NCBI GenBank assembly: GCA_002716485.1
Contig: PBBE01000047.1
Span: forward strand, 1-47,644
Reading direction: 5' to 3'
DNA from: Actinomycetota bacterium
Lineage (GTDB): Bacteria; Margulisbacteria; Marinamargulisbacteria; GCA-2716485
Length of the DNA stretch: 47,644 nucleotides
Made by a program: the position numbers and the translations under genes. Below the pieces are notes generated by a model. That model saw only the letters and a program-made list of their open reading frames with translations. It did no database searches and had not been told where the DNA came from. Each line of letters starts with the position of its first letter. The first letter of the stretch is position 1. This document shows, one piece after another, positions 7,349 to 43,498 of the stretch.

Positions 7349-7496
7349 TTAGTGGCTTTAGGTTGCATAAGAAATCCTGACGTGGAAATTTATTTGGAAT
7401 AAGGTACTAATATGGCATGATAATATGATAGAATGCCTTACTATAATTGTACCAGAAAAGGGGCCTGGAATCCCCATTTTGAGAAGAGGTTTATGT

Positions 7497-25600: not shown

Positions 25601-27987
25601 ATCACTTTGGTGACCCGACGATGATTGGTCGGTCTTTGTTGGCTTATTATGGGTTGGTAGGGATTTGGAAGATTCCTTTAAGAGAGACAGCCCCTGGTTT
25701 GGAGAAGGCATTTCGTAATTTGATGTTTGCAGGGCAACCTAGTTACGCTGTTATATGCTTGATATTTTCATTTTTGAATCAATTTTTTGTGGGGGTCAAG
25801 GTGCCCTTGTTATCGCAGCATTTAGCGCGTATTTTTGGGTATTTGAAGGGGATGGGGGTTTCTCTTGAATCGACTTCAGAGGTTCCTGATGAGCCAATGT
25901 CGTCTAGTATGAGCTTGATTAAAGTAGATGGGACCTTAGTGGATGATTTAAATATGTATCACAAATTTGTTCAGGTTTTAGCGGGTGGTGGTGGCCATTT
26001 TGATGAAATAAATCAAATTGATTTTAAACAATTAGATGATCGTTTTGACGATGGGTCACCGGTAGGCGTCTTTATGATGGTTTTTTGCTTTTTTGATAGT
26101 CAATATGAAAAGGGGCTTGAGATTGGGGATCAGCTTTGGCGTATGATTAAAGATCGTCATTTGGCGGTTATTTATCCGTTGTATATCTATTATTATAGTT
26201 TATTGATTTATCAAGGCTTTCAGGGTGCAAGCCTAAGACGGAAATGGATTTATCGACGACGTTTGTCTTATATTGTGAAACTTTATGATGGGTTTCAAGA
26301 TCGCTGTCCCGAAAATTTTCGGACGATTTATTTGTTTTTGGATGCCAAGTTATCGCATTTGAGATCTCCTTCATTTAACACAGTTCGTTATTTTAATGAG
26401 GCCGTGAGTTTGGCCATTCAAGATCAGATGCCCCATGTGGCAGGCTTGTGTCATCAAGCATTAGCGGATATTTATGAAGAAGAAGGGGTGTACCATTTGG
26501 CGTATACTCATTTAAATGAGGCTGTTCATTATTATTCGAATTGGGGCTTGAGTTTGGGGGTTCAAGAGATGAAGCTTAAGGTTGAATCATTGTATGAAAA
26601 ATGTAATTTATCTAAAGGGTTTATGCTTAATTTTTCTCAAGGGCTGGATTTTAAACGTTTGATTAATGCGAGTCAGTCTTTATCTCAAGAGACGAATTGT
26701 AAGGCCTTATTAGAGCAATTATTGAAGGTGGCCATGGAAAGTGCGGGAGCACAAAAGGCGGTTATTATTCTAAAGAAAGGAACTGATTTTTTTGTGGAAG
26801 CATCCTTTGATCCGAAGGACAATCAGATGAAGGTGTTTCAATCGGTTCCGATTCAGTCGGCGGATATGTTACCGAAGTCTTTGATTCAGTATGTTATTTT
26901 TACTAAAACCAAATTGCTGATTCATAACGCGGAGGGGCATAAGTTATTTCGGACGGATCCGTATGTGATTCAGAATGAACCGAAGTCGGTCTTATGTTTG
27001 CCTATTTTTAAACAGGTGGCATTAACAGGAGTGTTGTATCTTGAAAATAACTTGGTTTTTGATGGGTTTTCTGAAGATTCCTTACAGGTGTTAGAGGTGA
27101 TTGTCTCTCAAGCCGCTATTTCTATTGAAAATGCAGTTTTACATGAGCAGAACCAAGATTTAATTCATAACTTAGAGGACCGGGTTTCGTCTCAAATTAA
27201 GCAAACGCAGATAGCTGAACAGGAAAAAAACCAGAGTTTGAAAATGGTGAAAAAAGTATCAGAGCATTCGGCTTATGCGACTTTGACTAGAGGAATAGCT
27301 CATGAGATTCGCAATCCGATGGGGCTTATTTTATCGGGAATGGAATTAATTTTGGATAATATTCATGATAAAGAGTTGGTTCAAACGTATGCTCAATCTG
27401 TGAAGCAGAGCATGTTGCAGTTGTCGAGTATTACAACGAATATGCTTAACTATGGGACCCCGGTTTCGGACAAACGAGTCAATATGTCGATTAATGAGTT
27501 GATCAAAGATGCGTTAATGATGGCACGAACAGAGTGTAAGAAACGACGAATTGTGGTGAAAACGATTTTTAGAGAGGTTCCTGATGTGTATGTGGATACG
27601 AATAGTATTAGTCAGGCGTTTTTAAATATACTATTAAATGCGATTGAGGCCATTGATATGAATGGTGAAATTCAAATAGAAACCTTTGAGAGTCAGTGGG
27701 TTAATGCGTCTGGTCAACAAGTGGAAGGGGTGAAAGTGTTGGTTCAAGATTCTGGAAAAGGGATTCCTCAAGATATCTTAGATGAGATCTATGACCCGTT
27801 TTTTACTACAAAACATCAAAATGTAGGATTAGGACTTTCTCTGGTATTAAAAACAATAAGAGAGCATGAGGGGTTAATTGATGTGATTTCAAATGATGCA
27901 GGCTTGACGTCGTTTATTTTGCATTTACCTAGACAAGGTATTATAGAAGGGCGACGTGAGGAGGCCCTTTCTCTTTCAGTTAAGTAG
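22696..27987 (+). CDS. Multidomain sensor: degenerate Ser/Thr kinase, AAA ATPase, TPR-like region, GAF and histidine kinase (HstK-like)
   Basis: YCAPERTQRL and RSDFYALG kinase subdomains; P-loop GEKGAGKT; KTHGNPHY; GAF region (PKSVLCLPI, GVLYLENN); H-box IAHEIRNPM; N-box NAIEA; DSGKGI; FFTTK; GLGL. Confidence 0.92.
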   Translation: MIVEEKFLEGIHEKYELLSYQGRRVLERHFLSSDVALLQHFMKESGVLKALTERVEGVFLEHCPTGGFDKKMMFYLPEKGLSLGQLLSKGPMSMSDFYAFILPLLSRLKKVYGADFFHGNLNPNTIIVDSESFESYFFSVSFYAESEQAVPFYMALGKSILAYCAPERTQRLTLPYDHRSDFYALGCLIYECLTGTCLFDFEKPEEMVFAHLTQSPRELFGLKGKVPDYFSPMLLKIIEKLLHKDPHQRYQDIDSLIYDISQTQRLASTVSFPLDTQGKYRNVVLSDQYYGHQKEKDQMVSIYKNSLKNYPQLVLVEGEKGAGKTRFAHSILHGAFKPYPFIVLVSLQPKNQEVPYFGLTKLLEQLVFKLISQTNEQEIEEIRPQLHSISDENVALLMQLCSSYSALLEFFELDTKVTQSTQVANFGHAVVQFLSVVSLVKPLVFIFDGLEFADEATIRFISQSLVVLNDRPVTFVGTIGDEVLAEGNLVYSVLVQPSKTMYDYHLLKLSLLTVRDIKAFIKDTFHYRVERLDELAAIIIQKTHGNPHYIRQSVSFLLKEGYFKYLTESSIWKWSSEQVKSIKVADSAVNLLLGQYRSYSDDIRLLVQYAACFKDSFTMQQMASLLGFSNDVLIQYLLTLIDDNILVMVNQSIYLLSSRTLREQSYVLEQASFDFSNPKISAFIYDQVAAQERSEVHFRIGKLLLGQQDQLDEMFAEYKIVKHFNLSDRAYLDKSLARQLVNLNLLAGQKSKAAGHYQKALVYFDFALKFLDALHDEWDQPLCFSILLERVRCLYFSVGYEAALDAISQASEYSMSRLDKATVLMEQLFVEIEQNYFRKATETAYEMLRHCGVYLPKIKAVIILFLILEAQKIKRFIHLPIETDLVLDPQQSRRLELMFRGFELLNTSVHLVNNELFALSSLKLLSASYQMGGSANSASGLTMYSFWLTTQHKLDEAFTFSEKAIDISNHFGDPTMIGRSLLAYYGLVGIWKIPLRETAPGLEKAFRNLMFAGQPSYAVICLIFSFLNQFFVGVKVPLLSQHLARIFGYLKGMGVSLESTSEVPDEPMSSSMSLIKVDGTLVDDLNMYHKFVQVLAGGGGHFDEINQIDFKQLDDRFDDGSPVGVFMMVFCFFDSQYEKGLEIGDQLWRMIKDRHLAVIYPLYIYYYSLLIYQGFQGASLRRKWIYRRRLSYIVKLYDGFQDRCPENFRTIYLFLDAKLSHLRSPSFNTVRYFNEAVSLAIQDQMPHVAGLCHQALADIYEEEGVYHLAYTHLNEAVHYYSNWGLSLGVQEMKLKVESLYEKCNLSKGFMLNFSQGLDFKRLINASQSLSQETNCKALLEQLLKVAMESAGAQKAVIILKKGTDFFVEASFDPKDNQMKVFQSVPIQSADMLPKSLIQYVIFTKTKLLIHNAEGHKLFRTDPYVIQNEPKSVLCLPIFKQVALTGVLYLENNLVFDGFSEDSLQVLEVIVSQAAISIENAVLHEQNQDLIHNLEDRVSSQIKQTQIAEQEKNQSLKMVKKVSEHSAYATLTRGIAHEIRNPMGLILSGMELILDNIHDKELVQTYAQSVKQSMLQLSSITTNMLNYGTPVSDKRVNMSINELIKDALMMARTECKKRRIVVKTIFREVPDVYVDTNSISQAFLNILLNAIEAIDMNGEIQIETFESQWVNASGQQVEGVKVLVQDSGKGIPQDILDEIYDPFFTTKHQNVGLGLSLVLKTIREHEGLIDVISNDAGLTSFILHLPRQGIIEGRREEALSLSVK

Positions 27988-31269: not shown

Positions 31270-32463
31270 TTACTTTGCTAATAGTTCTATTACTTCTTTG
31301 TTGTTTGGATCGATTTCAATGGCACGTTGCCAACTATCAAAGGCCAAGTCTTCCAGTCCTAATTCATAATAAATGGAGCCAAGCCGGATATATAGTAGTG
31401 GTTGGGTAGGGTCAATTTGGATGGCTTGATTTAACTTGTTAAGTGCCATTTGGTAGCGTTTTTGTGAATAGTATTTGAATGAGTCAGAATAAAGGGCCAT
31501 GACTTTGCCGCTTTGCTTAGGTGCGACTTCAAATGGGAGGTCATGTTTTTTTCTGGGCCTCATTTCTTCTATTTTACTGGCCAATTGGGTTTTAAATCCA
31601 TCTACATCTTTTAATAAAGTGAGCCGTAATTTTTCAAGTTCATCCAATTCACCTTGGTATTGGTGCCATAAGTCTTCGATTTTATTGCCTAGTTTTTGGT
31701 ATTTTTTTTCATAGGCTTCAATTTCAGCACGTTGGTTTGAATAGGCGGATTTCATGCTGTTTTTTAGGGTGAATCCTACCGTTAGGTATCGGGAGGGGGC
31801 GTTATTATATTCCTCGTTGGCATCGCCTGAATGAGAAAGCTCGGTGAGGGCGATATTAATTTCAGTTTCTTTAGACGCATGAAACCGGTATCCAAAGTTG
31901 AAATCTTTGGTGTCATGTTCGAATATAATGGCGCCATTAAAAATATTGATTTCAAAGGCATAATAGAGACCGTTGCTGGTACTGATGCTTTTGATGGAGC
32001 TGAATTCTCGTTTGCCAAACCCGATATGTAGCCTTGAAAAGGGCGGTCCGAAATAAGTGGTTAAATAGGGGGAATAAAAATTTTCTTTTCCGGGACTCAC
32101 ATCGATCTTATTAGAACGGCTTGAGAGTTGTTTTTGGTTGCTAATATTTGCAATTCCGCCGGAGGCACCCACTAATTTTTTCATAAAAAAGTTCCAATGG
32201 ATATTAGCTGCAAATTGTTGGGGGCTTAAAATGGTGATGCCCGCTTTTATTTTTTCAGTGAGGCAGTAATTGAGCATCAGGTCAAATTCATGGGAGTAAT
32301 CTCGACTTAGTGCAAAAATCGTGCTTAGTTCAATGTCTCCACTTTGATGGGCTTTAGTCCCTGGAACATTGATTAAACTGGATGGGTAATGAAAGGCAGT
32401 GCTATAAACGGGGGTGTTTAAAAGACTGATGATAAAAATAAAGGTTCCGAGAATAATTCTCAT
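31270..32463 (-). CDS. Putative outer-membrane beta-barrel (YjbH-like) + coiled coil + C-terminal TPR protein, paralog 2
   Basis: Signal peptide, SLINVPGT motif, amphipathic strands (EHDTKDFNFGYRF, YLTVGFTL), heptad-rich segment and TPR pair with RLGSIYYELG...WQRAIEIDPNN. Confidence 0.7.
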   Translation of the reverse strand: MRIILGTFIFIISLLNTPVYSTAFHYPSSLINVPGTKAHQSGDIELSTIFALSRDYSHEFDLMLNYCLTEKIKAGITILSPQQFAANIHWNFFMKKLVGASGGIANISNQKQLSSRSNKIDVSPGKENFYSPYLTTYFGPPFSRLHIGFGKREFSSIKSISTSNGLYYAFEINIFNGAIIFEHDTKDFNFGYRFHASKETEINIALTELSHSGDANEEYNNAPSRYLTVGFTLKNSMKSAYSNQRAEIEAYEKKYQKLGNKIEDLWHQYQGELDELEKLRLTLLKDVDGFKTQLASKIEEMRPRKKHDLPFEVAPKQSGKVMALYSDSFKYYSQKRYQMALNKLNQAIQIDPTQPLLYIRLGSIYYELGLEDLAFDSWQRAIEIDPNNKEVIELLAK

Positions 32464-32465
32464 GA

Positions 32466-33758
32466 TTAGTTGCTAATGGCTTTATTTGGGCTAATAGGGG
32501 CTTGTTGGGGGATTGTTTCTGTTTTGTTTTGTGGGGTATCTTTTTTTTCTTTGGTTTTTTTTTGGGTTTTTTTTGATTCTCTGATTAGTTCTTTTTTGAT
32601 TTGTTTGAGATAGTTTACGATGTCTTTGTTTTTGGGATCAATTCGTAGGGCCATTTTCCATGCTGCTTTTGCCTTCTTATAATCTTTAAGTTTGAAGTAA
32701 ATGGAGCCAAGTCGGGTAAAGCCAACTGCAGAATTGGGGACGATTTTGACCACATTTAAGTATTCTTTTAAGGCATTTTGGTAGTCTTCATCATAGTAAA
32801 ACTCAAGGCCTCGCTGCATATGGACAAAGGCCCGTTTACTTGGATAACTTTCTTTGGGAAGGCCATCTTTTTCAAATGCGTCGGATAGGGTTTCTTCTAG
32901 GTCTTTTAGAAAGCCGGTTTGTTTGATAAGTTGATGGGTTTTTTCCACATCTTCTAGATTGTTTAGTCGAGTGTCGATATTATCGTAAGTTGAATTGAAT
33001 TCTTGACGTCCTACTAATAGGTCAGTGAGGCTATCTAAGACATTGCTGGCATAACTGACGCCGAATGAAAATAATCGTATTTCATGGCTAGGGTCTAATA
33101 TTTTGGGTCTTGCCGCCGTCCATGTTAAATAAATACGGGCTTTTTTTAGGTTGTATTTAAGACCAAGATTCGGAGAAAACCCGTCATATTCGGCAATAAT
33201 GGTTCCAAAGAGCATGCTTTTTTCAAAACCGCCTACAACACGTGTGATATTGGGTCTAATTCGATCAGAGGCGATTCCAATATGATAATTAGAGTTAAAT
33301 TTTAGTGATGAAATGGAGTAGATTGCAAATAAGTTCATAATGGGAATATTAGGAGCAGAGTCAATTTGCGGGATACTTCCCCAGCCTAGGTTTTTGAGAC
33401 CAATTCCAATATTATGTTGGATGGTTTTTTTTCTGTTTTGTCTTACAAATGGGGCGAAGTGAAAGCTATGAAGGGTATTCATGGTGTCTTGGACATTAAG
33501 GTTATATTCAAAGCGATCGGATAGTGCCCAGCGTAAATAAAATAATGTTCTAAAATAGACGGTGGCAGAGTCCGGGGTTTTGGCTCGGTAATCAAACATG
33601 GCACCATATTCAGTAAACCCCATTTTTTCCATTTTGGCAGAGGGGACTGTGATGAGGTCGTTTGATCCGGAAAAGCCAAATAGAAGCCCGTTTGAAAAGC
33701 CCCAAAATAGACTTAATAAAATGATAAGTTGTGGCTTAATGCGCATGTTGATCATCAT
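32466..33758 (-). CDS. Putative outer-membrane beta-barrel (YjbH-like) + coiled coil + C-terminal TPR protein, paralog 1
   Basis: Signal peptide, DLITVPSA motif, strands (EYDGFSPNLGLKY, FSFGVSY), coiled coil (IDTRLNNLE) and TPR pair with RLGSIYFKLK...WKMALRIDPKN. Confidence 0.7.
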   Translation of the reverse strand: MMINMRIKPQLIILLSLFWGFSNGLLFGFSGSNDLITVPSAKMEKMGFTEYGAMFDYRAKTPDSATVYFRTLFYLRWALSDRFEYNLNVQDTMNTLHSFHFAPFVRQNRKKTIQHNIGIGLKNLGWGSIPQIDSAPNIPIMNLFAIYSISSLKFNSNYHIGIASDRIRPNITRVVGGFEKSMLFGTIIAEYDGFSPNLGLKYNLKKARIYLTWTAARPKILDPSHEIRLFSFGVSYASNVLDSLTDLLVGRQEFNSTYDNIDTRLNNLEDVEKTHQLIKQTGFLKDLEETLSDAFEKDGLPKESYPSKRAFVHMQRGLEFYYDEDYQNALKEYLNVVKIVPNSAVGFTRLGSIYFKLKDYKKAKAAWKMALRIDPKNKDIVNYLKQIKKELIRESKKTQKKTKEKKDTPQNKTETIPQQAPISPNKAISN

Positions 33759-34257
33759 TTAAGGGGTCAAACTTATGGCATATATGAATAAGGCCTAACT
33801 CTTTTTGGTTAAGGGTACATTGGATTTGAGCGACTTGTAGTTGTTGGTCAGGAAAAAAGCATTGGCATTGTTCTTTTTTGGTTTCGCAGCGAGTAAGCTC
33901 GACGGGCTTATTGAGCTTAAGATAGAGTTGTTTAGTATCTTGGGACAGTTGAGATGAGAACAGGGATTCACTTGATGTTAAAATGTGTTCGGGTCGTTTA
34001 GTTACAATGCCATCACCTCCTAACATTCGGTCTGCTAATGCATAGATAATAGGGAGGTCAAAATTAAATAGAATGGGTTGGTTGTTTTCTTCAAATAATA
34101 GGGTGAAATTAAAGTCAGGTAATTGCTCTAGGAGGACATTAAAGGGCTGGTGCTTAAATTCAATATGAGTCATTTGAATCGAAATTTTGAGCTGTGATGC
34201 GATATGATCAGATAAGTTGAGTGCAAGTTGTTTATAAAATGGCTCAAATTGTGTCAT
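33736..34257 (-). CDS. fliM: FliM-like protein, middle (CheC-like) domain only
   Basis: FDLPIIYALADRMLGGDG...LTSSE matches the FliM GGxG region. It is 173 aa, with no LSQxEIDxLL N-terminus and no SpoA tail. Confidence 0.7.
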   Translation of the reverse strand: MTQFEPFYKQLALNLSDHIASQLKISIQMTHIEFKHQPFNVLLEQLPDFNFTLLFEENNQPILFNFDLPIIYALADRMLGGDGIVTKRPEHILTSSESLFSSQLSQDTKQLYLKLNKPVELTRCETKKEQCQCFFPDQQLQVAQIQCTLNQKELGLIHICHKFDPLNDDQHAH

Positions 34258-34274: not shown

Positions 34275-34928
34275 TTATTGTACCGTTTCTTTAACGAGAA
34301 TGCTAATACGGCGGTTATTGGCTCTGTTTTGTTTGGAGGTATTCGGTGCAATTGGTTTGGTATCTGCATACCCAGTTACACGAAGACGGTGTGAGTTAAT
34401 TTTAGATTGAATTAGTCGTCTGGCTACGGCAGATGCTCTGGCAGCAGATAGTTCCCAATTAGATGGATAGATATCGGATTGGATGGGAATATTATCGGTA
34501 TGACCTTCAATAATAATTTGGCCGTTACTTTGTTGAAGAAGATGGCTGATTTTAATTAATATTTTGGAGGTGTTTGTTTTTATGCTGGCTTTACCCGAGT
34601 CAAATAATATTTCTGAACCTAGATTAATACGGATATTTTGGGGGGTTTGGATGATTTCAATATCATTTTCAAGTTGGTTTTCTATAATATAGGCATTTAG
34701 TGTATCGCTAATGTCTTGGAGTTGTTTTTGCTGATTTAAAAGGTCATTGAATGGGGAGTCGTTATTGTTGCTGAATGTATTGCTTAATGACGCTTGTGAT
34801 TCAATATATTTTCCGATATCGATTTCAGAAATAGAGTATAAATAAATGAAAAAGACGAGTAATAGAGTTAATAAGTCTGCCCAGCAGACAATAAAATGAT
34901 TTTTAGGTTGCTCGTTTAATTCATTCAT
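34275..34928 (-). CDS. motB: Stator B subunit (MotB/PomB-like, OmpA-type peptidoglycan-binding domain)
   Basis: WADLLTLLLVFF TM with the conserved Asp; EGHTDNIP, SNWELSAARA, GYADTKP and NRRISI motifs. Confidence 0.93.
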   Translation of the reverse strand: MNELNEQPKNHFIVCWADLLTLLLVFFIYLYSISEIDIGKYIESQASLSNTFSNNNDSPFNDLLNQQKQLQDISDTLNAYIIENQLENDIEIIQTPQNIRINLGSEILFDSGKASIKTNTSKILIKISHLLQQSNGQIIIEGHTDNIPIQSDIYPSNWELSAARASAVARRLIQSKINSHRLRVTGYADTKPIAPNTSKQNRANNRRISILVKETVQ

Positions 34929-35695
34929 TTGTTTGGTTTGAGCTTTTTACGCTCTTTTTCGGGTAGGCACATGGACATTTTTTCATAGATCATATAATTG
35001 GTCTCTTTTTGGGCAATGCAGATGATGCCTTCTAAGAGCATTTTCTTTTGGATTAGTTCTTCATTACTTGCAATTCGTAGACGACCTGATAGGGGTTGAA
35101 AAATGAGGTTCGCCAATAGGATGCCATAGAATGTTGTAATCAATGCGATGGCCATGTTAGGACCAATCGTCTCAGGGCTTTCTAGTTCTGACAGTAAGTT
35201 AATCAGTCCAATTAATGTGCCAATAAATCCGAATCCTGGAGCATATTGGGCCATTTGCTCAAAAAAATGGATACCTTGGTTATGTCGAGACTGGATAAAG
35301 TCAATATTTTTTTCTAAGATGGGAACTAATTCTTTGACGGGGATATTATCAATGAGTAGTTGAAGACCATGTTTTAAATAATGGTCTTGGGTTTTTTTGA
35401 CGGTTTTTTCGAGAGATAAGCGGCCATTTTTTTTGTAGTTAGTGGCGATTTCGCTCATGTGTTTGATGTCTTGTAAGTAGTCTCTGCCTCGTGGCGAGAA
35501 AATAACTTTTAACCGGCCACCAATTCGAAATAGCTGGGTTAATGGGAAATGGACGAGGGTGGCACCGAAAGTGCCGCCCATGACAATTAGAAATGAGGTT
35601 GGATGTACAAATAAATGGATTCCTTTTTCGATGCCAATGGCTTGAATAATGAGCCCGCAACCTAATAATACGCCTAAAAATGCGGTGATGTCCAT
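34925..35695 (-). CDS. motA: Stator A subunit (MotA/PomA-like)
   Basis: SFLIVMGGTFGA, GRLSLE, APGFGFIGTLIGLI and IGPNMAIALITTFYG motifs; AGGGAG RBS. Confidence 0.95.
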   Translation of the reverse strand: MDITAFLGVLLGCGLIIQAIGIEKGIHLFVHPTSFLIVMGGTFGATLVHFPLTQLFRIGGRLKVIFSPRGRDYLQDIKHMSEIATNYKKNGRLSLEKTVKKTQDHYLKHGLQLLIDNIPVKELVPILEKNIDFIQSRHNQGIHFFEQMAQYAPGFGFIGTLIGLINLLSELESPETIGPNMAIALITTFYGILLANLIFQPLSGRLRIASNEELIQKKMLLEGIICIAQKETNYMIYEKMSMCLPEKERKKLKPNK

Positions 35696-35699
35696 GTGC

Positions 35700-36698
35700 T
35701 TACTCCCTTTTTTCGATTAGTTCTGATAATGGGTTGACTTTGTTGTTTCGTTCGAGTTCACGTGCTGTTTGAATAATATTTTTTTGGGCGATTTTGGCAT
35801 CATTTTCATTGAGCTCTTTGGGCAAGTTACTGATTTCTTCTTCTAACATGAACTTAAGTCGTTCGGAGAGGTTTTCTAGAATTCTATTTTTCACGTTGAT
35901 ATTAGAAATACTAAGGGCTGCTGCTAAGGTGCTTAATGGATCAATAGCGTATAGTAGACTTTGAAGATCTTTATCAGATAGATTGATTAAGTCTCCAAAT
36001 TCAAGCATATAGGATTTGATTTTTTGACTGGCTTCTTGGTCGCTTTGTTCAAAGTGGGTCATAATTGCACTCATATGTTCAGGGTTCATCACTTCGAGAC
36101 TTAAGGATAATTTGAGGTATGGATCTGTGCTTTCTTTGCTCACTTTTTCTTTTAATAATTGGTCTTTGAGGTGATGATGGATCTTCCAAGCCAAGCTAAT
36201 ATTGGGGATGTCTATTTTGAGTAGTTTTGAGGTGATGAGAATACTGATGTCTTTTTCAAATTGGGATAATAGTTGGGCCATTTTGTCTTCCGGTAAAAAA
36301 GAGCAAATAAGGGCGCTTAGTTGCGGTGGTTCATTTAATAAAAATTGGGTGAGCTTTTCATTATCAACTTGGTTAAGAAAGTGGAATAATTGGTCACTTT
36401 TTTCAAATAATGACGCATGGGAAATATCTGGAAATGATTGTTCAAAGAGATGGCTGGGGAGTAGTTCACCACCAAAGTGGGATCGCTTTCCGTTTAATAG
36501 GGTATGAAATTCTTCGATAATTGGTGAGGAGATATCTTCTTTAATATGTCCTAACTTTGACATGCTTTGTAGGAGTTGGGTGCTTTGTGTTTTTCCCAGT
36601 TTATTGAGTACTTCATGGGTTACCCCTGGGGACTCGACCTCTAAAGATAAGAGCAAGATGGCTGCTTTTTGGATAGGGGTATAGGTATCATCATTCAT
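35700..36698 (-). CDS. fliG: Rotor protein FliG (divergent)
   Basis: QKAAILLLSL, the GG linker, EPPQ (EHPQ-like), MLEFGDL (MFxFEDL-like) and torque helix NLSERLKFMLEEE. Start set at 36698 after an AGGAG RBS. Confidence 0.9.
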   Translation of the reverse strand: MNDDTYTPIQKAAILLLSLEVESPGVTHEVLNKLGKTQSTQLLQSMSKLGHIKEDISSPIIEEFHTLLNGKRSHFGGELLPSHLFEQSFPDISHASLFEKSDQLFHFLNQVDNEKLTQFLLNEPPQLSALICSFLPEDKMAQLLSQFEKDISILITSKLLKIDIPNISLAWKIHHHLKDQLLKEKVSKESTDPYLKLSLSLEVMNPEHMSAIMTHFEQSDQEASQKIKSYMLEFGDLINLSDKDLQSLLYAIDPLSTLAAALSISNINVKNRILENLSERLKFMLEEEISNLPKELNENDAKIAQKNIIQTARELERNNKVNPLSELIEKRE

Positions 36699-37788
36699 TA
36701 TTGATGTCTCCTTCTTGTTCTTGGTCTTTAATCCAGCCCATAATGGTGTGGGCAACTGCTTCTGGTTTTTTTAATGAGATATTGGCCAGTTCTTTTCGTT
36801 TCTGTTTAAAAAGTCGTAGTTGTCGTTTTGCTTCTAGAGCTGCTTTTTTTTGAGCGTCTTCTTGTTTTTTTAAAATGGCTGCTTTTTTTTCTTTGATTTG
36901 ACGTCGAAGAAATAGTCCTAGTTTTGTTAGAAAGTAGAGAAGTAAGAGTAATATGCTAGTAATAAATAATTTGAAGTCTTGAGCGGCAATAAAAGATTTA
37001 GTGGTATCAAAAAAGGGTTTATGTCGGGCAAGAAAGCGTTGGATAATAAATAAGGGGCCTTGAAATGGGGTGTATTGGATGTCGAGTTGGTCTTGTCGTG
37101 TAGGGTTAAATCCTGAGATTGATTGGATAAGTGATTTTAAAGTGTCGGTGTCAATGGGGATTAGTTGTGTGGAAGCGCTATCAAGTAAAATTTGGATTTG
37201 CATTTGTTGGATTATGTTTTTGGGGCTGGAAATAGTTTCATTGGTTTCATTGTAGTAAATGGATTCAATCTTTTCGGAGATACTGGTATTTACCTTTTGT
37301 ATTTTTTCTTTGGGGATGCTTGGTTTAATACTTTCGACGACGACGCCAGGAAAGCCTGGTAGTGCGGATTCATTACTTTGACGTTGGGTAATGAGCCCAG
37401 GAAGTTTAAGTCCGTCTTTATAGAGCTGTTGTAACATTTGAGCAGATTGTCTAAGCGGGACCTGGGGAATGATATCACCATTTAGTTTTTGTTGGCGTTG
37501 GGTAATGATTCGATTTGGGGTTAGTTCTTTAGATTTTTGGATACGATGTTCGGGGATATCTAAGTTAACGGCGATGATAAAGGCAGTTTCAGGATAGAAT
37601 TTTTTGAGTAGTAGATGGATGTCTCCTTTAATTTTAAGGCTTTGTCGTTCTGGAAATGATAGGGATTGATGGGGGCGACGCTCAGATAGCCAGTTAGTGA
37701 TTTTATTGGGGGTTCTGAATAGAAAAAAGGTCCCCAAGAGGATGGCGATAATCAGGATGGGTAAATAAGGTGATTTATGTGTCGTCAT
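36691..37788 (-). CDS. fliF: FliF-like MS-ring protein, RBM3/C-terminal half only
   Basis: TM1, then RBM3-like segments (LLLKKFYPETAFIIAVNLDI; IIQQMQIQILLD; LIQSISGFNPTRQDQLDIQYTPF), TM2 and a FliG-binding tail KPEAVAHTIMGWI. Start set at MTTHK (37788). Confidence 0.75.
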   Translation of the reverse strand: MTTHKSPYLPILIIAILLGTFFLFRTPNKITNWLSERRPHQSLSFPERQSLKIKGDIHLLLKKFYPETAFIIAVNLDIPEHRIQKSKELTPNRIITQRQQKLNGDIIPQVPLRQSAQMLQQLYKDGLKLPGLITQRQSNESALPGFPGVVVESIKPSIPKEKIQKVNTSISEKIESIYYNETNETISSPKNIIQQMQIQILLDSASTQLIPIDTDTLKSLIQSISGFNPTRQDQLDIQYTPFQGPLFIIQRFLARHKPFFDTTKSFIAAQDFKLFITSILLLLLYFLTKLGLFLRRQIKEKKAAILKKQEDAQKKAALEAKRQLRLFKQKRKELANISLKKPEAVAHTIMGWIKDQEQEGDINNE

Positions 37789-39073
37789 TAGTTTTAAAAA
37801 TTTGGATTCGGTTATTACCAGAATCAACGACATATAAGGTGCGGGCACTACTATCATAGTGTAATTGACGAGGGAATTTAAACTCACCTGTATCGCTGCC
37901 TTCTTGGCCCCAGTTGGCAACGTGAAGGCCGGTTCTTATATCAAATATTTGGATACGATGATTAAACGTGTCTGAAACGTATAGATGGTGGTTGGCGCTA
38001 TCTATGGCCATGCCTTCTGGGCTTTTGATATTGCCTGTACTGGTACCATATTTAATTGTATTAAATTGGGTGAGCTCATTATTGCTTAATCGTTGTACAA
38101 TACTTAATTCTTTGTTGACGATGTAGACATCGTTATCATAATGGGCCAGATCATAGGCAAATAAGGTGGCGTTACTGTCTTGGAATGAGCTTGTGGGGCC
38201 AGTGTGGATCCGGTGGTCATCGAGGCTGCTATAGACCACCGATGTGAGATTGCTTGGGTTGGCTCTGACGGCAATGGGGTTATCTAGATTGTTGATCGGG
38301 ATAAAGGGATCTCCACTTTCTCCCCAATTATCAGGGTCAAATTTGATGATACGGTTATTACCAGAATCAGCGACCCAGATTCTGCTCCCGTCATAGGTGA
38401 GTCCTCGGGGATATCTAAATTGAAACTCGCCAGACCCTGCAGTGCCATAGGTGGCCATTAAGCTGCCAGAGGGGGCATATTTTTGGATTCGAGAGTTTAG
38501 GGTGTCTGATACATAAATATTTTTGTTGCTATCTAGGGTAATGCCCGTGGGATGGATGAGTGCGTCATTGGGGGTAATATTGAGTTGATGGGACATAAAT
38601 CCGGTATATTTGAGTGCTTTGGGTGAGGATGATGAAAATGTGTAATTTCTAGTTGAAATGGCTTGTAAAATAAAATTATAAGTAGTAAAGCCTTCACTTA
38701 ACTTTTGCTCAAGGATATATTGGTATATGATGGCATTGTTAATGGAAATATTTTCAGTGATAATTAGTAGGTCTTGGTTGTTTTTATTAGGTTCAACAGG
38801 GAATTGTTGGATGTATTGGTAGGGCTGGGTGCTTCCTTCGGTTTTGAAAGCCAATTTGTAATGGTCTACATTTTCGGGGTTATTGATAATCCATTTGATG
38901 GTAATAAATTGGGTGGCTTTATCGAGTTCGATTGATGAGATCATTGGAATGCTTTGAAAATCGTCAAATTTAACAGTGGCGGTTAAATTATCGATGGGGC
39001 TGGATGTGCAGCCGATAATCAGGCCTAAGCAAAGAAGGATTGTACTGACTTCGATATGCAGCCTTTTGATCAT
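37775..39073 (-). CDS. Lipoprotein with an FN3-like domain and an NHL-repeat beta-propeller
   Basis: Lipobox LIIG-C; NHL repeats (PTGITLDSNKNIYVSDTLNSRIQK, PRGL..WVADSGNNRI, PEGMAID..YVSDTFNHRIQ, YVVDSGNNRIQ). Confidence 0.88.
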   Translation of the reverse strand: MIKRLHIEVSTILLCLGLIIGCTSSPIDNLTATVKFDDFQSIPMISSIELDKATQFITIKWIINNPENVDHYKLAFKTEGSTQPYQYIQQFPVEPNKNNQDLLIITENISINNAIIYQYILEQKLSEGFTTYNFILQAISTRNYTFSSSSPKALKYTGFMSHQLNITPNDALIHPTGITLDSNKNIYVSDTLNSRIQKYAPSGSLMATYGTAGSGEFQFRYPRGLTYDGSRIWVADSGNNRIIKFDPDNWGESGDPFIPINNLDNPIAVRANPSNLTSVVYSSLDDHRIHTGPTSSFQDSNATLFAYDLAHYDNDVYIVNKELSIVQRLSNNELTQFNTIKYGTSTGNIKSPEGMAIDSANHHLYVSDTFNHRIQIFDIRTGLHVANWGQEGSDTGEFKFPRQLHYDSSARTLYVVDSGNNRIQIFKTNDDT

Positions 39074-40917
39074 CGACTTAGCCTTTCTAGTTCATTTTTT
39101 AAGGCAATATTCTCTGATTTAAGGGCATTAATTTCGCTTTGTTGGGCTTTAATAGATTCAATGATAAGACCGATTAATGGCGTCATGTTCAATGTTTTAT
39201 ATCCGCTGGGATCGGTGCCTACTAGGTTTGGGTAAATATCTTCGACATTTTGGGCGATTAAACCGATTTGGCTGCCCTCTGGAAAGGACCGTTCGGGAAA
39301 CTCGTCTTGACGCCATTCATAAGTGACCCCATTGAGTTCAGAAAGGGAAGCTATGGGAGTTGAAATGGCCTTGATCTCTTTTTTTAAGCGCCGATCAGAT
39401 GGTGTGCTGAGTGCCATTCCGGGGGTTCCTGCCATAAAGGTGGTGCCAGTGACATGTAAGTCGCCGGTGATCTTAATGCCGGCACCGTAGTCATTGATTT
39501 TTCCTAATTCTAAATTGGTTCTGGCTGCTTCTGCAGTGGTGCCGCCGGTACCTCCCTTGCTTATGGCAATGATGGGGAGACGGTTGGCAGGGACCTCTTG
39601 GGCGTAGGTGGTGGTGATATTGGTATTGCTTAAATTGGTCATGGTGGCTGTTCCTGTAATATCACCAGTAAGTGTAATAACGGGATCATTGACATCAAAG
39701 CTTAGTGTTTTATTGGGATGGCTGCCAGCGCCATCTATAGAAATGCCATTCTCTGTATTGTCATTGACCATTTTGATTACTTCGTCTCTTACTTCATTTC
39801 CATTTAATCCGCCACCAGCCCCGGCGGGAACGTTAGATAGCCAGTTGTAGTGGATTCGACCGGCGCCTGTTGGCTCATCATCAAGGTCAACTTTTTTATA
39901 AAACGTATTTTCAGTATAGCTTGTAATGGCTTTTTCAGTAGGAATTGCGCTATCACTATTTCCTGTAAAGGTGGCATCACTACTGAACTCGTTGACTGGA
40001 ACCCCTGAGTTAAGGAGAAGTGTGCCTTTGACTTCAAGGGTTTCACTGGGATTGGTGGTATTAATACCGACATTGCCTTTATTATAGAAAATTTCATTGG
40101 CTTCACTGCCGTCTTCCCAGCGCCCTGCATTTTCGTCCACATAGGTTTTGATGGCTTTTTCAGTGGGAATACTGTTGTCACTATTGCCAGCAAGGGAGGT
40201 ATCGGTACTAAAGTTGTTAATCGCGGTTCCAGAATTTAAAAGAAGGGACCCGTTCTTGATATGAAGTTTCTCGGTTGGGTTGGTGATGCCAACGCCTACA
40301 TTGCCAGAGAGATAATAAATTTCATCGCTGTCATCACGCTCTTTCCATTTTCCACCGTTTTCTTTGATGTATTCGACAATGGCCAATTGGGATGCAATTT
40401 TATTATCACTTGGATTGGTAAAGGTGATGTCGGTACTTAGTGCTTGGATTTCGTTACCATTGTTAATTGTAATGCTTTTAACCTTAATGGATTGCTCGTT
40501 ACCAAATAATGATGGGACTAGGTCAATTGCATAGGGGGCGGCTGTGAGTGAGTGGGTTAGGGGGATGGTTACTTGGTCAATGGTATAGGACTCCGCCCCT
40601 TCGATGCTAAATTGCAAGTTTGGGGTGGGGATATCAAGTAGGTTTGGGGTTAAAGGGGTGCTATGTCCCAAGGTAAGATCAGCATGGCCATCCACAAAAG
40701 AGACCCCAATTAATGTTTCACTCCAAGCGGTTGCGGTGGTATCTGAAAATAGTGCGATTTTCACTCGCTTGTAGCCGTTAATAGGGCCGTTTTGGTCAGA
40801 AAGGTTTAATGTGATGGGGATGACTTTGGATGCCGCTATGATAGGGCTGCTATTTTTAATTAATAGGCCGGAGATAAGGGCGCTCCAAATAAGTATTTGA
40901 AAGAAATAGCGTTTCAT
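39070..40917 (-). CDS. Secreted trimeric fibre/adhesin with a C-terminal peptidase S74 intramolecular chaperone
   Basis: Signal peptide; GNVGVGITNP and GNVGINTTNP repeats; tail-fibre motifs (ITLTGDITG, KGGTGGTTAEAARTNL); SDRRLKKEI...GVTYEW...IGLIAQNVE and a terminal coiled coil. Confidence 0.88.
   Translation of the reverse strand: MKRYFFQILIWSALISGLLIKNSSPIIAASKVIPITLNLSDQNGPINGYKRVKIALFSDTTATAWSETLIGVSFVDGHADLTLGHSTPLTPNLLDIPTPNLQFSIEGAESYTIDQVTIPLTHSLTAAPYAIDLVPSLFGNEQSIKVKSITINNGNEIQALSTDITFTNPSDNKIASQLAIVEYIKENGGKWKERDDSDEIYYLSGNVGVGITNPTEKLHIKNGSLLLNSGTAINNFSTDTSLAGNSDNSIPTEKAIKTYVDENAGRWEDGSEANEIFYNKGNVGINTTNPSETLEVKGTLLLNSGVPVNEFSSDATFTGNSDSAIPTEKAITSYTENTFYKKVDLDDEPTGAGRIHYNWLSNVPAGAGGGLNGNEVRDEVIKMVNDNTENGISIDGAGSHPNKTLSFDVNDPVITLTGDITGTATMTNLSNTNITTTYAQEVPANRLPIIAISKGGTGGTTAEAARTNLELGKINDYGAGIKITGDLHVTGTTFMAGTPGMALSTPSDRRLKKEIKAISTPIASLSELNGVTYEWRQDEFPERSFPEGSQIGLIAQNVEDIYPNLVGTDPSGYKTLNMTPLIGLIIESIKAQQSEINALKSENIALKNELERLSR
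39907..40443 (-). repeat. Internal protein repeat of about 76 aa (about 2.3 copies) in the fibre gene
   Basis: LSTDITFTNPSDNKIASQLAIVEYI / FSTDTSLAGNSDNSIPTEKAIKTYV / FSSDATFTGNSDSAIPTEKAITSYT; the first two are followed by W..EI.Y..GNVG....P...L...LLLNSG. Confidence 0.8.
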
Positions 40918-41010: not shown

Positions 41011-41937
41011 CTAGGTCTTTTTTTTAAGTGACCAATGTAATGAAAACAGGTGGGACTGGGGGACTTGAGGATGGCTGTTGGGTAAGAATGCGTATTGGAG
41101 TTGGAGTTGATTTAGATTAAGACTTAGCCCGGTACTTGCTTGTATGAGGTCTAGGTTATGGTGTTGGGAATATCCAAAATATATCGATAGGAGCGAGACT
41201 TGTGTGGGATGTAAAATGATGCCTAGTGCGCTGATCATGGCGTTTCGGGTGGGGTGGCTTTTGGTTTGGCTTCTGATGCTAAAGTGTCTGGATTGGAATT
41301 GATGGCTGATGATGATTTGGGTGGGGTAGTGGGCGCTGATGCGTTGGTTTTGGTAGTTTTGATGGAAAGGGTGCTTTATCAGGTGATTAATAATCAGGGA
41401 ATAGTGATGGGCGGATTGGGTCCAATATGCGCCGATGCCAGCATTGATATTATTGAATATATTCTGGTCGATTTCAGTGCGAATCCAAGATGTTTTGAGA
41501 CCGAGGTAAGCATGGGGAGATAGGCGGGTAGCGATGATATGGTTGAGTTCTAGGTGTTGATAATGAAAGCTGTGGTGAATGATTGGGTAGTCATTGATCA
41601 GGGTGCTGTGGTGTAACTGCGAGACACTGGTTTTCATTAGGCCGATTCCCATGGGGATGTTTTTGAATGGGAACGTGCTCGCGAATTGTTGGTACTGGAT
41701 TTCGTTTAGGATACGGGTGTTAAATAAGGAAAAGGATGGCGATTTGATACGCCCAATTGTGGCTGGGTTTCCGAAGACGCTGCTGGCATGATCTGAAAAG
41801 CCTTGGATGTTGCCGCTGCCGATCATTTTGGCACTATTGCCCAAGTGACTGGCTAAAAATGATTGGCTTTGCTTGCCCCAACTGGGGCTGCTTAGGAGTA
41901 GGAGTATTATAGCGAAGGTAGGGCGTTTATTGATCAT
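41011..41937 (-). CDS. PorV/PorQ (FadL-fold)-like outer-membrane beta-barrel
   Basis: Signal peptide; N-terminal plug motif GNSAKMIGSGN...DHASSVFGNPATI (similar to GARaxgMG...NPAgL); C-terminal LQYAF...HLFSLHW. Confidence 0.65.
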   Translation of the reverse strand: MINKRPTFAIILLLLSSPSWGKQSQSFLASHLGNSAKMIGSGNIQGFSDHASSVFGNPATIGRIKSPSFSLFNTRILNEIQYQQFASTFPFKNIPMGIGLMKTSVSQLHHSTLINDYPIIHHSFHYQHLELNHIIATRLSPHAYLGLKTSWIRTEIDQNIFNNINAGIGAYWTQSAHHYSLIINHLIKHPFHQNYQNQRISAHYPTQIIISHQFQSRHFSIRSQTKSHPTRNAMISALGIILHPTQVSLLSIYFGYSQHHNLDLIQASTGLSLNLNQLQLQYAFLPNSHPQVPQSHLFSLHWSLKKKT

Positions 41938-42545
41938 GGGAGGCTTACCATTTTACCTTTACCAAGGATGGTTTTTTTAGTTGAAATTAGATAAAAATAA
42001 ATGGCGCTACTTAACGCGCTATTGGGGAGTGATTTTTTGGAAAAAGAAAAGGTATTGATCCCAGATTTTCCGCCGCTTTCTCCTGATGAGAACTGGGCCT
42101 GGTAGACCCGCTGGCCACTCATATCATAAATGTCGATGTTAATATCTGCGTTTTGGTTTAAGTGATAGTAGAGGGTGGTGCCAGAATTGATTCGGAATGG
42201 GTTGGGGTAATTTAAGGGGGCTTTTTCAAGTTGGATGGGGGCAATATCTTCATGAATCACTTCATCACTGCTGCTGTGTTGGTTGGCAGGGGGCTTGGCT
42301 TGTGAGTGTGGCATGTTAAAGGTATTGGGATGACTGGTGATGGTTCCGTAGATGGGTGTATCCATGAGGGTGTGTTGGCTTTGGTGTTGGCGTTTAAAAA
42401 GGGGTTCTTTTGCGGTGGTGTTGGTGATGGGGCTACATAAGCAAAGGATTAGTATCCCTTGGAAGAGTCGGGTTGATCGTTTAATTAGGAAGAGGTTTTG
42501 TTTCATTCTAGTTTTATTATTGACGATTAGGATAGGGAAATACAA
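41934..42545 (-). CDS. Small exported protein consisting mainly of a T9SS type-A-CTD/FlgD-Ig-like domain
   Basis: NYPNPF...TTLYYHL...INIDIYDMSGQRV...LSSAIYFYLI...GKGKMV. The true start may be 42506 (MKQNL). ATGA overlap with the next gene. Confidence 0.75.
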   Translation of the reverse strand: MYFPILIVNNKTRMKQNLFLIKRSTRLFQGILILCLCSPITNTTAKEPLFKRQHQSQHTLMDTPIYGTITSHPNTFNMPHSQAKPPANQHSSSDEVIHEDIAPIQLEKAPLNYPNPFRINSGTTLYYHLNQNADINIDIYDMSGQRVYQAQFSSGESGGKSGINTFSFSKKSLPNSALSSAIYFYLISTKKTILGKGKMVSLP

Positions 42546-42651
42546 GTCTGAATTTAGGTGTTTAAGTGGAGTGAAGAATTGATTGTTGAGCCTGGATGGG
42601 GTATACTGGTGGTATATTTATTTTCAAGTAGTTTTTATAAGGAGGTGGCTT

Positions 42652-43008
42652 ATGACACAATTTTCAGTGACTCAGTCTTATAATGAGGCCTTTTCTTCGG
42701 ATGTTCTTCAGATTCAAGGGGAGCTTGATGTTCATACTTGTCCGATGGTGAAAGAGAAAGCAGAAGTTATTTTAGATGCTTCGCCTAGTAAGTTGGTGTT
42801 GGATTTGGATCAGACCAGTTATATTGATTCTACAGGGTTAGGTGTGATTGTATATATGGCCAAGCAGATGGCGGATCAATCAGGCACTGTATATGTCTTG
42901 ACGTCGCAGCCTCAAATACGTAAAGTGTATGAAGTGTCTGGGATAGGTCGGCAGAATATTCATTTAGTGGCAGACCAAGAGGAGCTGCTTCGTGTTAGCA
43001 CCGTCTAA
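42652..43008 (+). CDS. rsbV: Anti-sigma factor antagonist (STAS domain)
   Basis: GELDVHTCP and YIDSTGLG phospho-Ser motif; AAGGAGGT RBS sets the start at 42652. Confidence 0.9.
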   Translation: MTQFSVTQSYNEAFSSDVLQIQGELDVHTCPMVKEKAEVILDASPSKLVLDLDQTSYIDSTGLGVIVYMAKQMADQSGTVYVLTSQPQIRKVYEVSGIGRQNIHLVADQEELLRVSTV

Positions 43009-43030
43009 AAAAAGCCAAAAAGGAGATCTT

Positions 43031-43498
43031 ATGGATACCGAAAATTTACCCCTTCAGATATCAATGAAAGTTCCCTCAGTTCCAGAGTTAGTCAGTGTTG
43101 TTCGCTTGGCGGTGTCCGGTTTGGCCAATCGGTTGAATTTTACAGTGGAAGAAATTGAAGATATTAAGATTTGTGTTTCAGAAGCGTGTACCAATGTGGT
43201 TCAGCATGCCTATGCTAAAAGTACTCGTCCTCAAGATAATATGATTGATGTTGTGTTTACCGTATCGGATGAGTCATTGGGGATTCAGGTACAAGACTTT
43301 GGTGAGGGCTTTGATGTTTCGGTATTAGAGACGATGAAGACGGGGGTATTGCGTGAGGATTCATTGAACTTGGGGTTGGGCCTGACGTTTGTACGAAATT
43401 TAATGGATGAATGTGATGTTCATTCTGAGCCTGGGAAAGGGACCGTGGTGAGTATGAAGAAACGGGTTCCTCAGCAAACGCTTCAGACGACTTCTTAG
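43031..43498 (+). CDS. rsbW: Anti-sigma factor / Ser kinase
   Basis: VVRLAVSGLA, EDIKICVSEACTNVVQHAY, DFGEGFD and GLGLTFVRNLMD motifs; AGGAG RBS before 43031. Confidence 0.92.
   Translation: MDTENLPLQISMKVPSVPELVSVVRLAVSGLANRLNFTVEEIEDIKICVSEACTNVVQHAYAKSTRPQDNMIDVVFTVSDESLGIQVQDFGEGFDVSVLETMKTGVLREDSLNLGLGLTFVRNLMDECDVHSEPGKGTVVSMKKRVPQQTLQTTS

Follow-up and report, generated by a model that had tools for sequence, protein, structure and literature searches.

In the bacterial flagellum, rotation and secretion look inseparable: all FliG/MotAB rotors in the literature are, to our knowledge, mounted on an MS-ring in which the type III export gate is housed as well. The protein of this ring, FliF (Salmonella and Vibrio; 6scn, 8z5v and 8zdt), is about 560 amino acids (aa) long. 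We analysed a stretch of 47,644 nucleotides (nt) from a genome of the phylum Margulisbacteria (contig PBBE01000047.1 of assembly GCA_002716485.1, hereafter the window), in which a gene on the minus strand (36691..37788) encodes a FliF paralogue of about 365 aa. This short FliF resembles FliF in its two transmembrane (TM) helices, in its RBM3 domain with a beta-collar, in the RGD...PF end of RBM3, in a C-terminal helix that aligns to the FliG-binding end and in the position of its gene directly upstream of fliG. It differs in that the RBM1-2 inner ring for the export gate is absent, in an invariant LPGFP motif in the collar loop, in having no linkage to export genes and in matching no NCBIfam family. 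We assign a probability of about one half (0.5) to the reading that the short FliF is the rotor of an export-less, MotAB-driven, flagellum-derived motor that spans the envelope. The family to which it belongs would then be a natural MS-ring that keeps the rotor-side parts only, together with its own FliG, FliM middle domain and stator.

The nearest published oddity that we found is a short FliF-FliG fusion of the Chlamydiaceae, bacteria not thought to be flagellated, whose FliF part has ~330 aa and two TM helices according to the consulted passages of PMC4768692. In those passages, chlamydial FliF is similar to SctJ over RBM2, has lost the SpoIIIAG-like (RBM3) domain and is joined to a region that resembles only the middle part of FliG, and no MotAB, FliM or TPR partners are described. 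The chlamydial protein is therefore alike in that a shortened FliF is fused to a FliG-like region, as in some members of the family reported here, but its truncation, as those passages present it, is the reverse: RBM3 was lost there and is kept in the window family, from which the SctJ-like part has gone. The PF01514 domain pair of the SctJ/YscJ inner-membrane ring lipoprotein is indeed absent from the short FliF and from its 27 aligned relatives. No RBM3-only FliF and no module of this kind was described in the literature searched, supplementary gene tables lying outside that search, and the string 'flagell' is absent from the main text of two papers on Margulisbacteria.

The longest open reading frame (ORF) at the short fliF locus (36691-37920) opens with a TTG at 37920. 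Because this start overlaps the upstream gene and the starts of relatives fall near the Met at 37788, the latter was taken as the start of a 365-aa product. Two TM-like hydropathy segments (residues 6-24 and 266-284) flank a periplasmic region. TM1 (residues 6-24, helix 8-25 in the structural model; 37717..37773) is separated by ~20 residues from the first helix of RBM3 in the model. RBM3 and the beta-collar, delimited by the model, Foldseek, VIA-align and PF08345, occupy residues 45-242 (37063..37656), with the LPGFP motif at residues 143-147 in the collar loop (37348..37362) and the motif SGFNPTRQDQL...PF at residues 226-242. TM2 follows at about residues 266-290 (hydropathy 266-284, helix from 272 in the model; 36919..36993), and a helix at residues 342-364 (36697..36765), which aligns to the C-terminal end of Salmonella FliF, closes the protein. 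All of these segments lie on the minus strand. A first-pass annotation, made from the letters of the window, had described this layout of a short spacer, RBM3, collar insert, motif, second TM helix and FliG-binding helix, and it was right in each particular.

As that annotation had expected, the Pfam search found PF08345 (YscJ_FliF_C) and not PF01514, the RBM1-2 (SctJ-like) pair. PF08345 was the sole Pfam match (residues 134-242, E 3.8e-8, 34.3 bits vs a cut-off of 23.8), and no NCBIfam family, including the fliF equivalog, was matched at E<=0.01. The short fliF gene and both of its ends were spanned without insertions or deletions by contigs from three public marine sequencing runs of two studies. 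Contigs of these runs covered the whole stretch at >=99%, although one of the runs may be the source of the window. Since these contigs bridge both ends of the gene, the short N-terminal part of the protein is not a fault of assembly.

A single-sequence search of solved structures with the short FliF gave no match. In contrast, a profile of 27 relatives aligned to Salmonella FliF (6scn) with an E-value of 6.2e-20, profile positions 40-94 pairing with FliF residues 231-285 and positions 159-374 with residues 332-558, through TM2 to the C-terminal end. Nothing in that profile aligned to Salmonella FliF before residue 231. RBM1-2 of Salmonella FliF presumably lie before about residue 225, and we take RBM3 with the collar to span about residues 228-438; with these limits, the start of the alignment places the short FliF from RBM3 onward, with nothing before. 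The AlphaFold2 model (pLDDT 78.4) contained a helix at residues 45-64, strands at 70-77, 83-103, 167-187 and 195-203, a helix at 214-225 and a strand at 234-240, followed in the C-terminal half by a long helix from residue 272 and the C-terminal helix 342-364. According to this model, the two long strands 83-103 and 167-187, which flank a disordered loop of ~60 residues (104-166), are the collar hairpin of an alpha-beta-beta/alpha-beta RBM pattern. Foldseek placed FliF RBM3/collar ring chains at ranks 1-18 (E 3.6e-8 to 2.6e-6) and SpoIIIAG at rank 19 (E 0.11). VIA-align, which is independent of Foldseek, put Vibrio and Salmonella FliF at the top (Z 13.1, 12.8 and 11.6; next row Z 8.0) and matched model residues 43-243 to residues 235-438 of Salmonella FliF. 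SpoIIIAG (5wc3; VIA-align Z 7.3) thus shares an RBM3-like, ring-forming fold with a beta insertion, but it is a weak match with a Z in the background range, it has no FliG-binding tail and it matches nowhere at the sequence level. In the profile alignment, the C-terminal helix of the short FliF fell on about residues 527-558 of Salmonella FliF, residues 520-560 of which are the FliG-binding region in the consulted passages of PMC4768692; this helix is accordingly a predicted FliG-binding helix. The short FliF thus lacks one defining feature of FliF, RBM1-2, and does not match the curated model, while its rotor-side features are retained.

An exhaustive HMMER scan of 1.84 billion representative proteins returned 53 matches at E<=1e-3, 22 of them at E<=1e-10. 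As to ortholog lengths, a check that the first-pass annotation had proposed, most matches were end-to-end proteins of 340-430 aa; four were of 663-676 aa, and the tail consisted of proteins of 515-560 aa matched in their C-terminal part only. Sources that name these relatives call them FliF/YscJ, and one fused form is called FliG. Among 27 aligned relatives, whose identity to the window protein ranges from 15 to 31%, PF08345 was matched by 26 and PF01514 by none (E<=0.01). The loss of RBM1-2, proposed from the window protein, thus held for 27 of 27 relatives, and by these sequence comparisons it is a property of the family and not the truncation of one gene. L61, P91, P144, G145 and P147 were invariant in the alignment, the last three within LPGFP. 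The form PG(F/Y/I/L)P is retained in the fused members and in related fusions of 480-492 aa; every RBM3-only form inspected keeps PG-x-P in some form, and the motif was absent from all 11 long FliFs checked.

Within the phylum of the window, the profile matched 90 of 146 species genomes. Reading of the resulting table gave 30 clear and 3 doubtful carriers of a short or fused form, the matches in the remaining genomes being ORFs of ~470-600 aa covered only over RBM3 and the C-terminal part. None of 33 named genomes from other phyla gave a full-length family match; their matches were C-terminal only, in ORFs of 512-584 aa. The nearest clusters in the ESM Atlas, proteins of 208-268 aa with PF08345 only, scored 0.89, below the 0.9 line; such PF08345-only clusters were commonest in Bacillota and Planctomycetota and may be gene fragments.

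In the window, short fliF belongs to an eleven-gene run on the minus strand with overlaps of 4-23 nt, gaps of at most 17 nt and one gap of 93 nt, in the order sorting-domain protein, PorV/Q-like barrel, S74 fibre-like protein, NHL propeller, short FliF, FliG, MotA, MotB, FliM-like protein, TPR1 and TPR2. To see which of these genes travel together, ORFs of 20 related loci in 19 genomes were searched with the proteins of the window. FliG adjoined or was fused to the short FliF in 18 of the 20 loci, the ring protein and FliG forming a single polypeptide of 669-824 aa in four of them. The FliM-middle gene was found in 19 loci, a TPR1-type gene in all 20, a TPR2-type gene in 16, and MotAB within the fetched stretch in 11. 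The order was nearly always short FliF, FliG, (MotA, MotB), FliM middle and two TPR paralogues, a set of genes shared by about 30 genomes. No export-gate gene lay within this module, either by Pfam in the window or in the related loci, nor did the conserved core of the 20 loci encode any axial or filament component.

The FliG of the window (35700..36755, minus strand; PF14842, PF14841, PF01706) has N, M and C domains; its likely start is the ATG at 36698, which gives an overlap of 8 nt with the stop of short fliF. Arg and Glu of its C-terminal helix are kept in at least 90% of 16 sequences. The adjoining MotA-type subunit (34925..35695, minus strand; PF01618) had MotP, MotA and PomA as its best NCBIfam matches (179-196 bits; MotP E 4.6e-58) vs 18 bits for TolQ (E 0.0019), and two of its Pro residues are kept in at least 90% of 12 sequences. 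The MotB-type subunit (34275..34928, minus strand; PF13677, PF00691) carries a plug, a TM Asp kept in at least 90% of 11 sequences and an OmpA-type peptidoglycan-binding domain. By these comparisons the stator of the module is of the flagellar MotAB type and not of the Exb/Tol type. In the consulted passages of PMC12505986, charged residues of FliG and MotA make the rotor-stator contact.

The FliM-like protein (173 aa; 33736..34257, minus strand) consists of a middle domain only, without the N-terminal peptide and without the FliN-type C domain of FliM. A single-sequence search of solved structures with it gave no match; its family profile matched crystal structures of the FliM middle domain over the full length (E about 1e-6), and PF02154 was matched by 14 of 20 members. 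In the GGxG motif, the first Gly is kept in at least 90% and the other two in at least 60% of 20 sequences.

The two TPR proteins are paralogues (24% identity, E 1e-11). TPR1 (32466..33758, minus strand) has, by Pfam and sequence, a signal peptide, a beta-rich domain, a long helix and a C-terminal TPR. In TPR2 (31270..32463, minus strand), whose model has a pLDDT of 83.1, a signal peptide is followed by a 12-strand beta-barrel (residues 43-236), a 65-residue helix (237-301) and a three-repeat TPR (315-396). Foldseek related the strands to NanC (TMt 0.59-0.60), a designed 12-strand barrel (0.63) and FapF, and the tip to the peptide-binding TPR domains of Hsp90 co-chaperones; from the model, TPR2 is a predicted outer-membrane barrel with an inward helix and a TPR tip. 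No motor accessory of such a build is known to us from the literature. PflA and PflB of Campylobacter and FlcA of spirochaetes are periplasmic TPR scaffolds of high-torque flagellar motors, and they are alike in being TPR proteins that act on stator and rotor or are encoded beside them; they differ in that the TPR of the module caps a 65-residue helix, which extends from a predicted 12-strand outer-membrane barrel. TPR2 matched NCBIfam FlcA_CTERM with E 5.2e-5, and membership of the FlcA family is not shown by this match, which, at 21.9 bits vs a cut-off of 300, lies far below the cut-off.

These features can be assembled into a tentative picture, in its details still somewhat doubtful, of a flagellar rotor detached from secretion: an RBM3-only FliF ring, a FliG ring, a lining of FliM-middle proteins, MotAB, and barrel-TPR ties to the outer membrane that grip the LPGFP loop. 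Many copies of the short FliF would form an S-ring and collar just above the inner membrane, as RBM3 of FliF does, and a FliG ring, with the FliM-middle protein as its lining, would be borne by their C-terminal helices. Ion flow through peptidoglycan-anchored MotAB would push the FliG C domains and turn the ring. Lacking RBM1-2, the ring would offer no inner ring for FliPQR/FlhB and, lacking a FliN domain, the module would offer no docking site for the export ATPase, so that nothing would be exported through it and the output of the motor would be periplasmic. The collar tip would present a disordered loop with the invariant LPGFP, and two outer-membrane barrels might reach inward on helices of ~10 nm (65 residues) ending in TPRs of the peptide-binding type, which could grip the collar loop or hold the stators. 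Surface movement and work on the envelope are two candidates for what the rotation would achieve.

Several points weigh against this reading. MotA and MotB reach none of the NCBIfam equivalog cut-offs, the match of the window's FliM-like protein to PF02154 has 26 bits, just under the cut-off of 27, and MotAB are outside the fetched stretch or missing in 9 of the 20 loci. No load or output structure was identified for the module, and we infer ring formation, rotation and the TPR link from homology. The genome assembly of the window (1.4 Mb in 59 contigs) is 56% complete. Finally, every carrier examined also has FlhA and a long FliF, and for this reason independence from a canonical basal body cannot be demonstrated by the phyletic pattern; with FlhA in 135 of the 146 phylum genomes (70 of the 72 of high quality), the short FliF has never been seen without an export apparatus in the cell.

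The genome of the window itself encodes a canonical set, on contigs other than the window. It includes a 601-aa FliF with PF01514 (E 3.9e-46), FlhA, FlhB, FliP, FliR, FliN, a 625-aa FliM with a FliN-type domain and a MinD/FlhG-like ATPase, as well as FlgB, FlgC, FliE, two FlgF/G-type rod proteins, FlgA, FlgH, FlgI and a FliK-like protein, with rod, L-ring and P-ring genes thus among them. Basal-body and export genes of the set sit on the genome contigs C5:12751-23774 and C58:3117-12444. On the latter, a 327-aa ORF without Pfam match (7210-8193) occupies the place between fliP and fliR at which fliQ is expected; a gene of the size of fliQ was not looked for. The first-pass annotation had concluded that the ring has lost its coupling to type III secretion. 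The module bears this out, with no export-gate gene and a FliM-like protein without FliN-type domain, but a full export set exists elsewhere in the genome. An RBM1-2-bearing FliF and export genes, on which that conclusion was to turn, are thus present, though on other contigs and not alongside the module. As both are in the cell, co-assembly of the short FliF with the RBM1-2 FliF or the export apparatus is conceivable.

The FliG beside the canonical fliF of this genome has 225 aa with N and M domains only, and no FliG_C coding sequence was found downstream of it in any frame. The same arrangement, FlgC, FliE, FliF (477-540 aa) and a FliG without C domain (154-236 aa), recurred in all 8 further loci sampled, of which three lie outside the class. 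In the class, torque-domain FliGs are therefore found with RBM3-only ring proteins. These facts are the basis of the most serious alternative, in which the short FliF is an accessory ring within or around the canonical basal body and supplies the torque FliG that the canonical locus is missing, so that the module would belong to a single flagellum-like machine and not be a separate one. The presence of FlhA and long FliF in all carriers examined speaks for it, as do the encoded rod, L-ring and P-ring, which would need a drive if they turn. We nevertheless consider it unlikely. Both a complete FliG, N domain included, and a FliM-middle protein are encoded in the module itself, which needs nothing from the canonical C-ring. 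Moreover, the short-FliF family gave only a weak C-terminal profile match with the long FliF of this genome (probability 27%) and BLASTP between the two proteins gave none, which makes a mixed ring of short and long FliF unlikely. The canonical set also exists without any FliG_C in much of the phylum: this domain (E<=1e-6) was present in 32 and absent from 44 of the 76 phylum genomes that are at least 90% complete, against the near-universal FlhA given above. In addition, families f31 and f33 combine the module with a true flagellum, for which a separate full-length FliG is encoded.

Flagellin followed a different distribution. It was found in 11 of the 76 phylum genomes that are at least 90% complete, among them all 10 of families f31-f34, in which FlhA is matched at least twice and a second fliF stands beside a normal FliG of 333-343 aa. 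Flagellin (PF00669) was found in none of the 19 genomes of the class of the window that are at least 90% complete, nor in the 56%-complete genome of the window. The basal-body set of the phylum, with its torque-less FliG and mostly without flagellin, suggests an apparatus that may neither rotate by itself nor carry a flagellin filament. The flagellin-bearing genomes of f31-f34 (e.g. G063, G065, G068, G069) have 4-7 FliG_C ORFs each, some of 850-917 aa, which is an unusually high number of rotor-type proteins.

A second alternative denies that the complex rotates continuously. MotAB and FliG would act on the barrel-TPR proteins as a transducer of ion-motive force, resembling Tol and Ton systems, and the whole would be a static or stepping anchor in the envelope. 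In its favour, the two invariably linked partners are predicted to be barrels of the outer membrane from which a long helix with a terminal TPR extends into the periplasm, and the conserved core is devoid of axial or filament components. Even so we hold this to be improbable, since the stator is of the MotA/PomA type and not ExbB/TolQ-like, as the E-values of MotP and TolQ show, and FliG keeps three domains and the conserved charged helix, whose only role known to us is in turning a rotor.

The first-pass annotation had left the choice between a pure rotor and an open conduit; the export-less rotor is favoured here, and a wide pore through the inner membrane, for which the loss of the gate-holding domains is the sole argument, can hardly be right, given that the model shows a usual S-ring/collar subunit, in which a normal TM helix lies at either end and no pore-lining element is seen, that the ring of TM helices of an MS-ring encloses lipid, and that a leak of such size would defeat the ion gradient needed by the adjoining MotAB. 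Equally far from probable is a decaying remnant of a lost flagellum without present function: the class has no detectable flagellin and a few copies carry in-frame stops (G010, G020, G030, G044), but ORFs are intact in about 30 genomes of two classes, with conserved gene order, with invariant motifs and functional residues kept despite the low identity, and with the true flagellum of f31 and f33 alongside. The export-less rotor thus remains our preferred reading. The loss of RBM1-2, which had been put forward as the strongest sign of a non-flagellar system, is however outweighed in this respect by the phyletic and gene-context evidence.

Another RBM3-only ring protein of this genome is a 487-aa RBM3-FliG(M/C) fusion (contig C35, 20195-21658). 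Its signal/TM segment is followed by a short RBM3 that carries LPGYP, and a TM helix and a Gly-rich linker lead on to FliG M and C domains. The flanking genes encode a TPR paralogue and a further MotAB pair (contig C35:18748-22690), and hhalign aligned the periplasmic part of the fusion over the full RBM3 of the family with a probability of 95.6% (E 1.3e-8). By our own count, about 39 of 55 class genomes have an ORF of 473-510 aa with FliG_C at its end; of five inspected, those of G000, G039, G028 and G099 (480-492 aa) share the architecture and that of G006 differs. The 480-492-aa fusions are like the short FliF in being RBM3-only and in the PG-x-P motif, the TM helix and the TPR and MotAB neighbours. 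In contrast to it, they have a much shorter collar and no FliG N domain, are always fused and are more widespread. An unrooted FliG tree was built from the last 230 residues of 27 sequences, including two true flagellar FliGs. Results showed a split with 100/98 support, which places the two flagellar FliGs, the 480-492-aa fusions and the G006 protein on one side, and the window FliG, 15 unfused FliGs of related loci and four fused forms on the other. With only two true flagellar sequences and no outgroup, the tree gives no direction.

If the preferred reading is right, a rotor can exist as a module of its own. A FliG-based rotary motor would then drive something other than an axial filament that is secreted, and would do so where the canonical basal body of the lineage has lost its torque domain, and the module would offer a minimal system for the study of MS-ring assembly and FliF-FliG stoichiometry without a gate. 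The family also bears on whether the rotor and the secretion core had separate histories. The host phylum poses a second puzzle, that of basal-body genes which are near-universal, with a torque-less FliG and mostly no flagellin.

Upstream of short fliF, conservation with the module ends: the four genes there accompany it in only 1-3 of the 20 loci. The nearest, an NHL-repeat beta-propeller with a lipoprotein-like N-terminus (37775..39073, minus strand), overlaps the start of short fliF by 14 nt and has a counterpart in only one related locus. It is preceded on the same strand by a fibre-like protein of 615 aa that ends in a Peptidase_S74 intramolecular chaperone domain (39070..40917; 4-nt overlap with the next gene), a PorV/PorQ-like barrel protein near the head of the run (41011..41937) and, at its head, a small protein with a C-terminal sorting domain of the type IX secretion system (41934..42545); the first was identified by Pfam and the other two by Pfam and NCBIfam. 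One of the 20 loci (G030) has S74, sorting-domain and PorV-like genes close to its module, and a 2169-aa protein with a C-terminal domain of this kind is found in the G063 locus. A scan for promoters and terminators gave counts near or below the shuffled expectation, and among the public data sets listed as containing the stretch there was none of RNA.

The PorV-like and sorting-domain genes led us to consider a type IX secretion or gliding motor (GldLM, SprA), which was dropped as unsupported, not as disproved. SprA exceeded its cut-off in none of 28 class genomes, which gave short local matches only, and GldM was found in none of the 28, but the control genomes gave no match either. Zorya (ZorAB) or another defence system was rejected: MotA had no PADLOC match, MotB scored 72 bits with ZorB vs 181 bits with flagellar MotD, and the only defence-model match elsewhere in the module was a weak one to a TPR.

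Divergent from the head of the gene run, at 42583-43498, lie genes for a STAS anti-sigma antagonist and a SpoIIAB-like anti-sigma kinase, which may form a partner-switching regulator; G012 and G015 have such a pair at a distance of 2.5-3 kb from their modules. Elsewhere in the window, a response regulator with two receiver stretches (16543-17790) precedes two adjacent, very large ORFs (18326-27987), one of 1457 aa without Pfam match and one of 1763 aa that combines protein kinase, AAA_16, GAF and histidine kinase domains. The GC skew is strongly positive along positions 1-46000 of the window, from +0.14 to +0.44 per 2-kb interval, whichever strand the genes are on.

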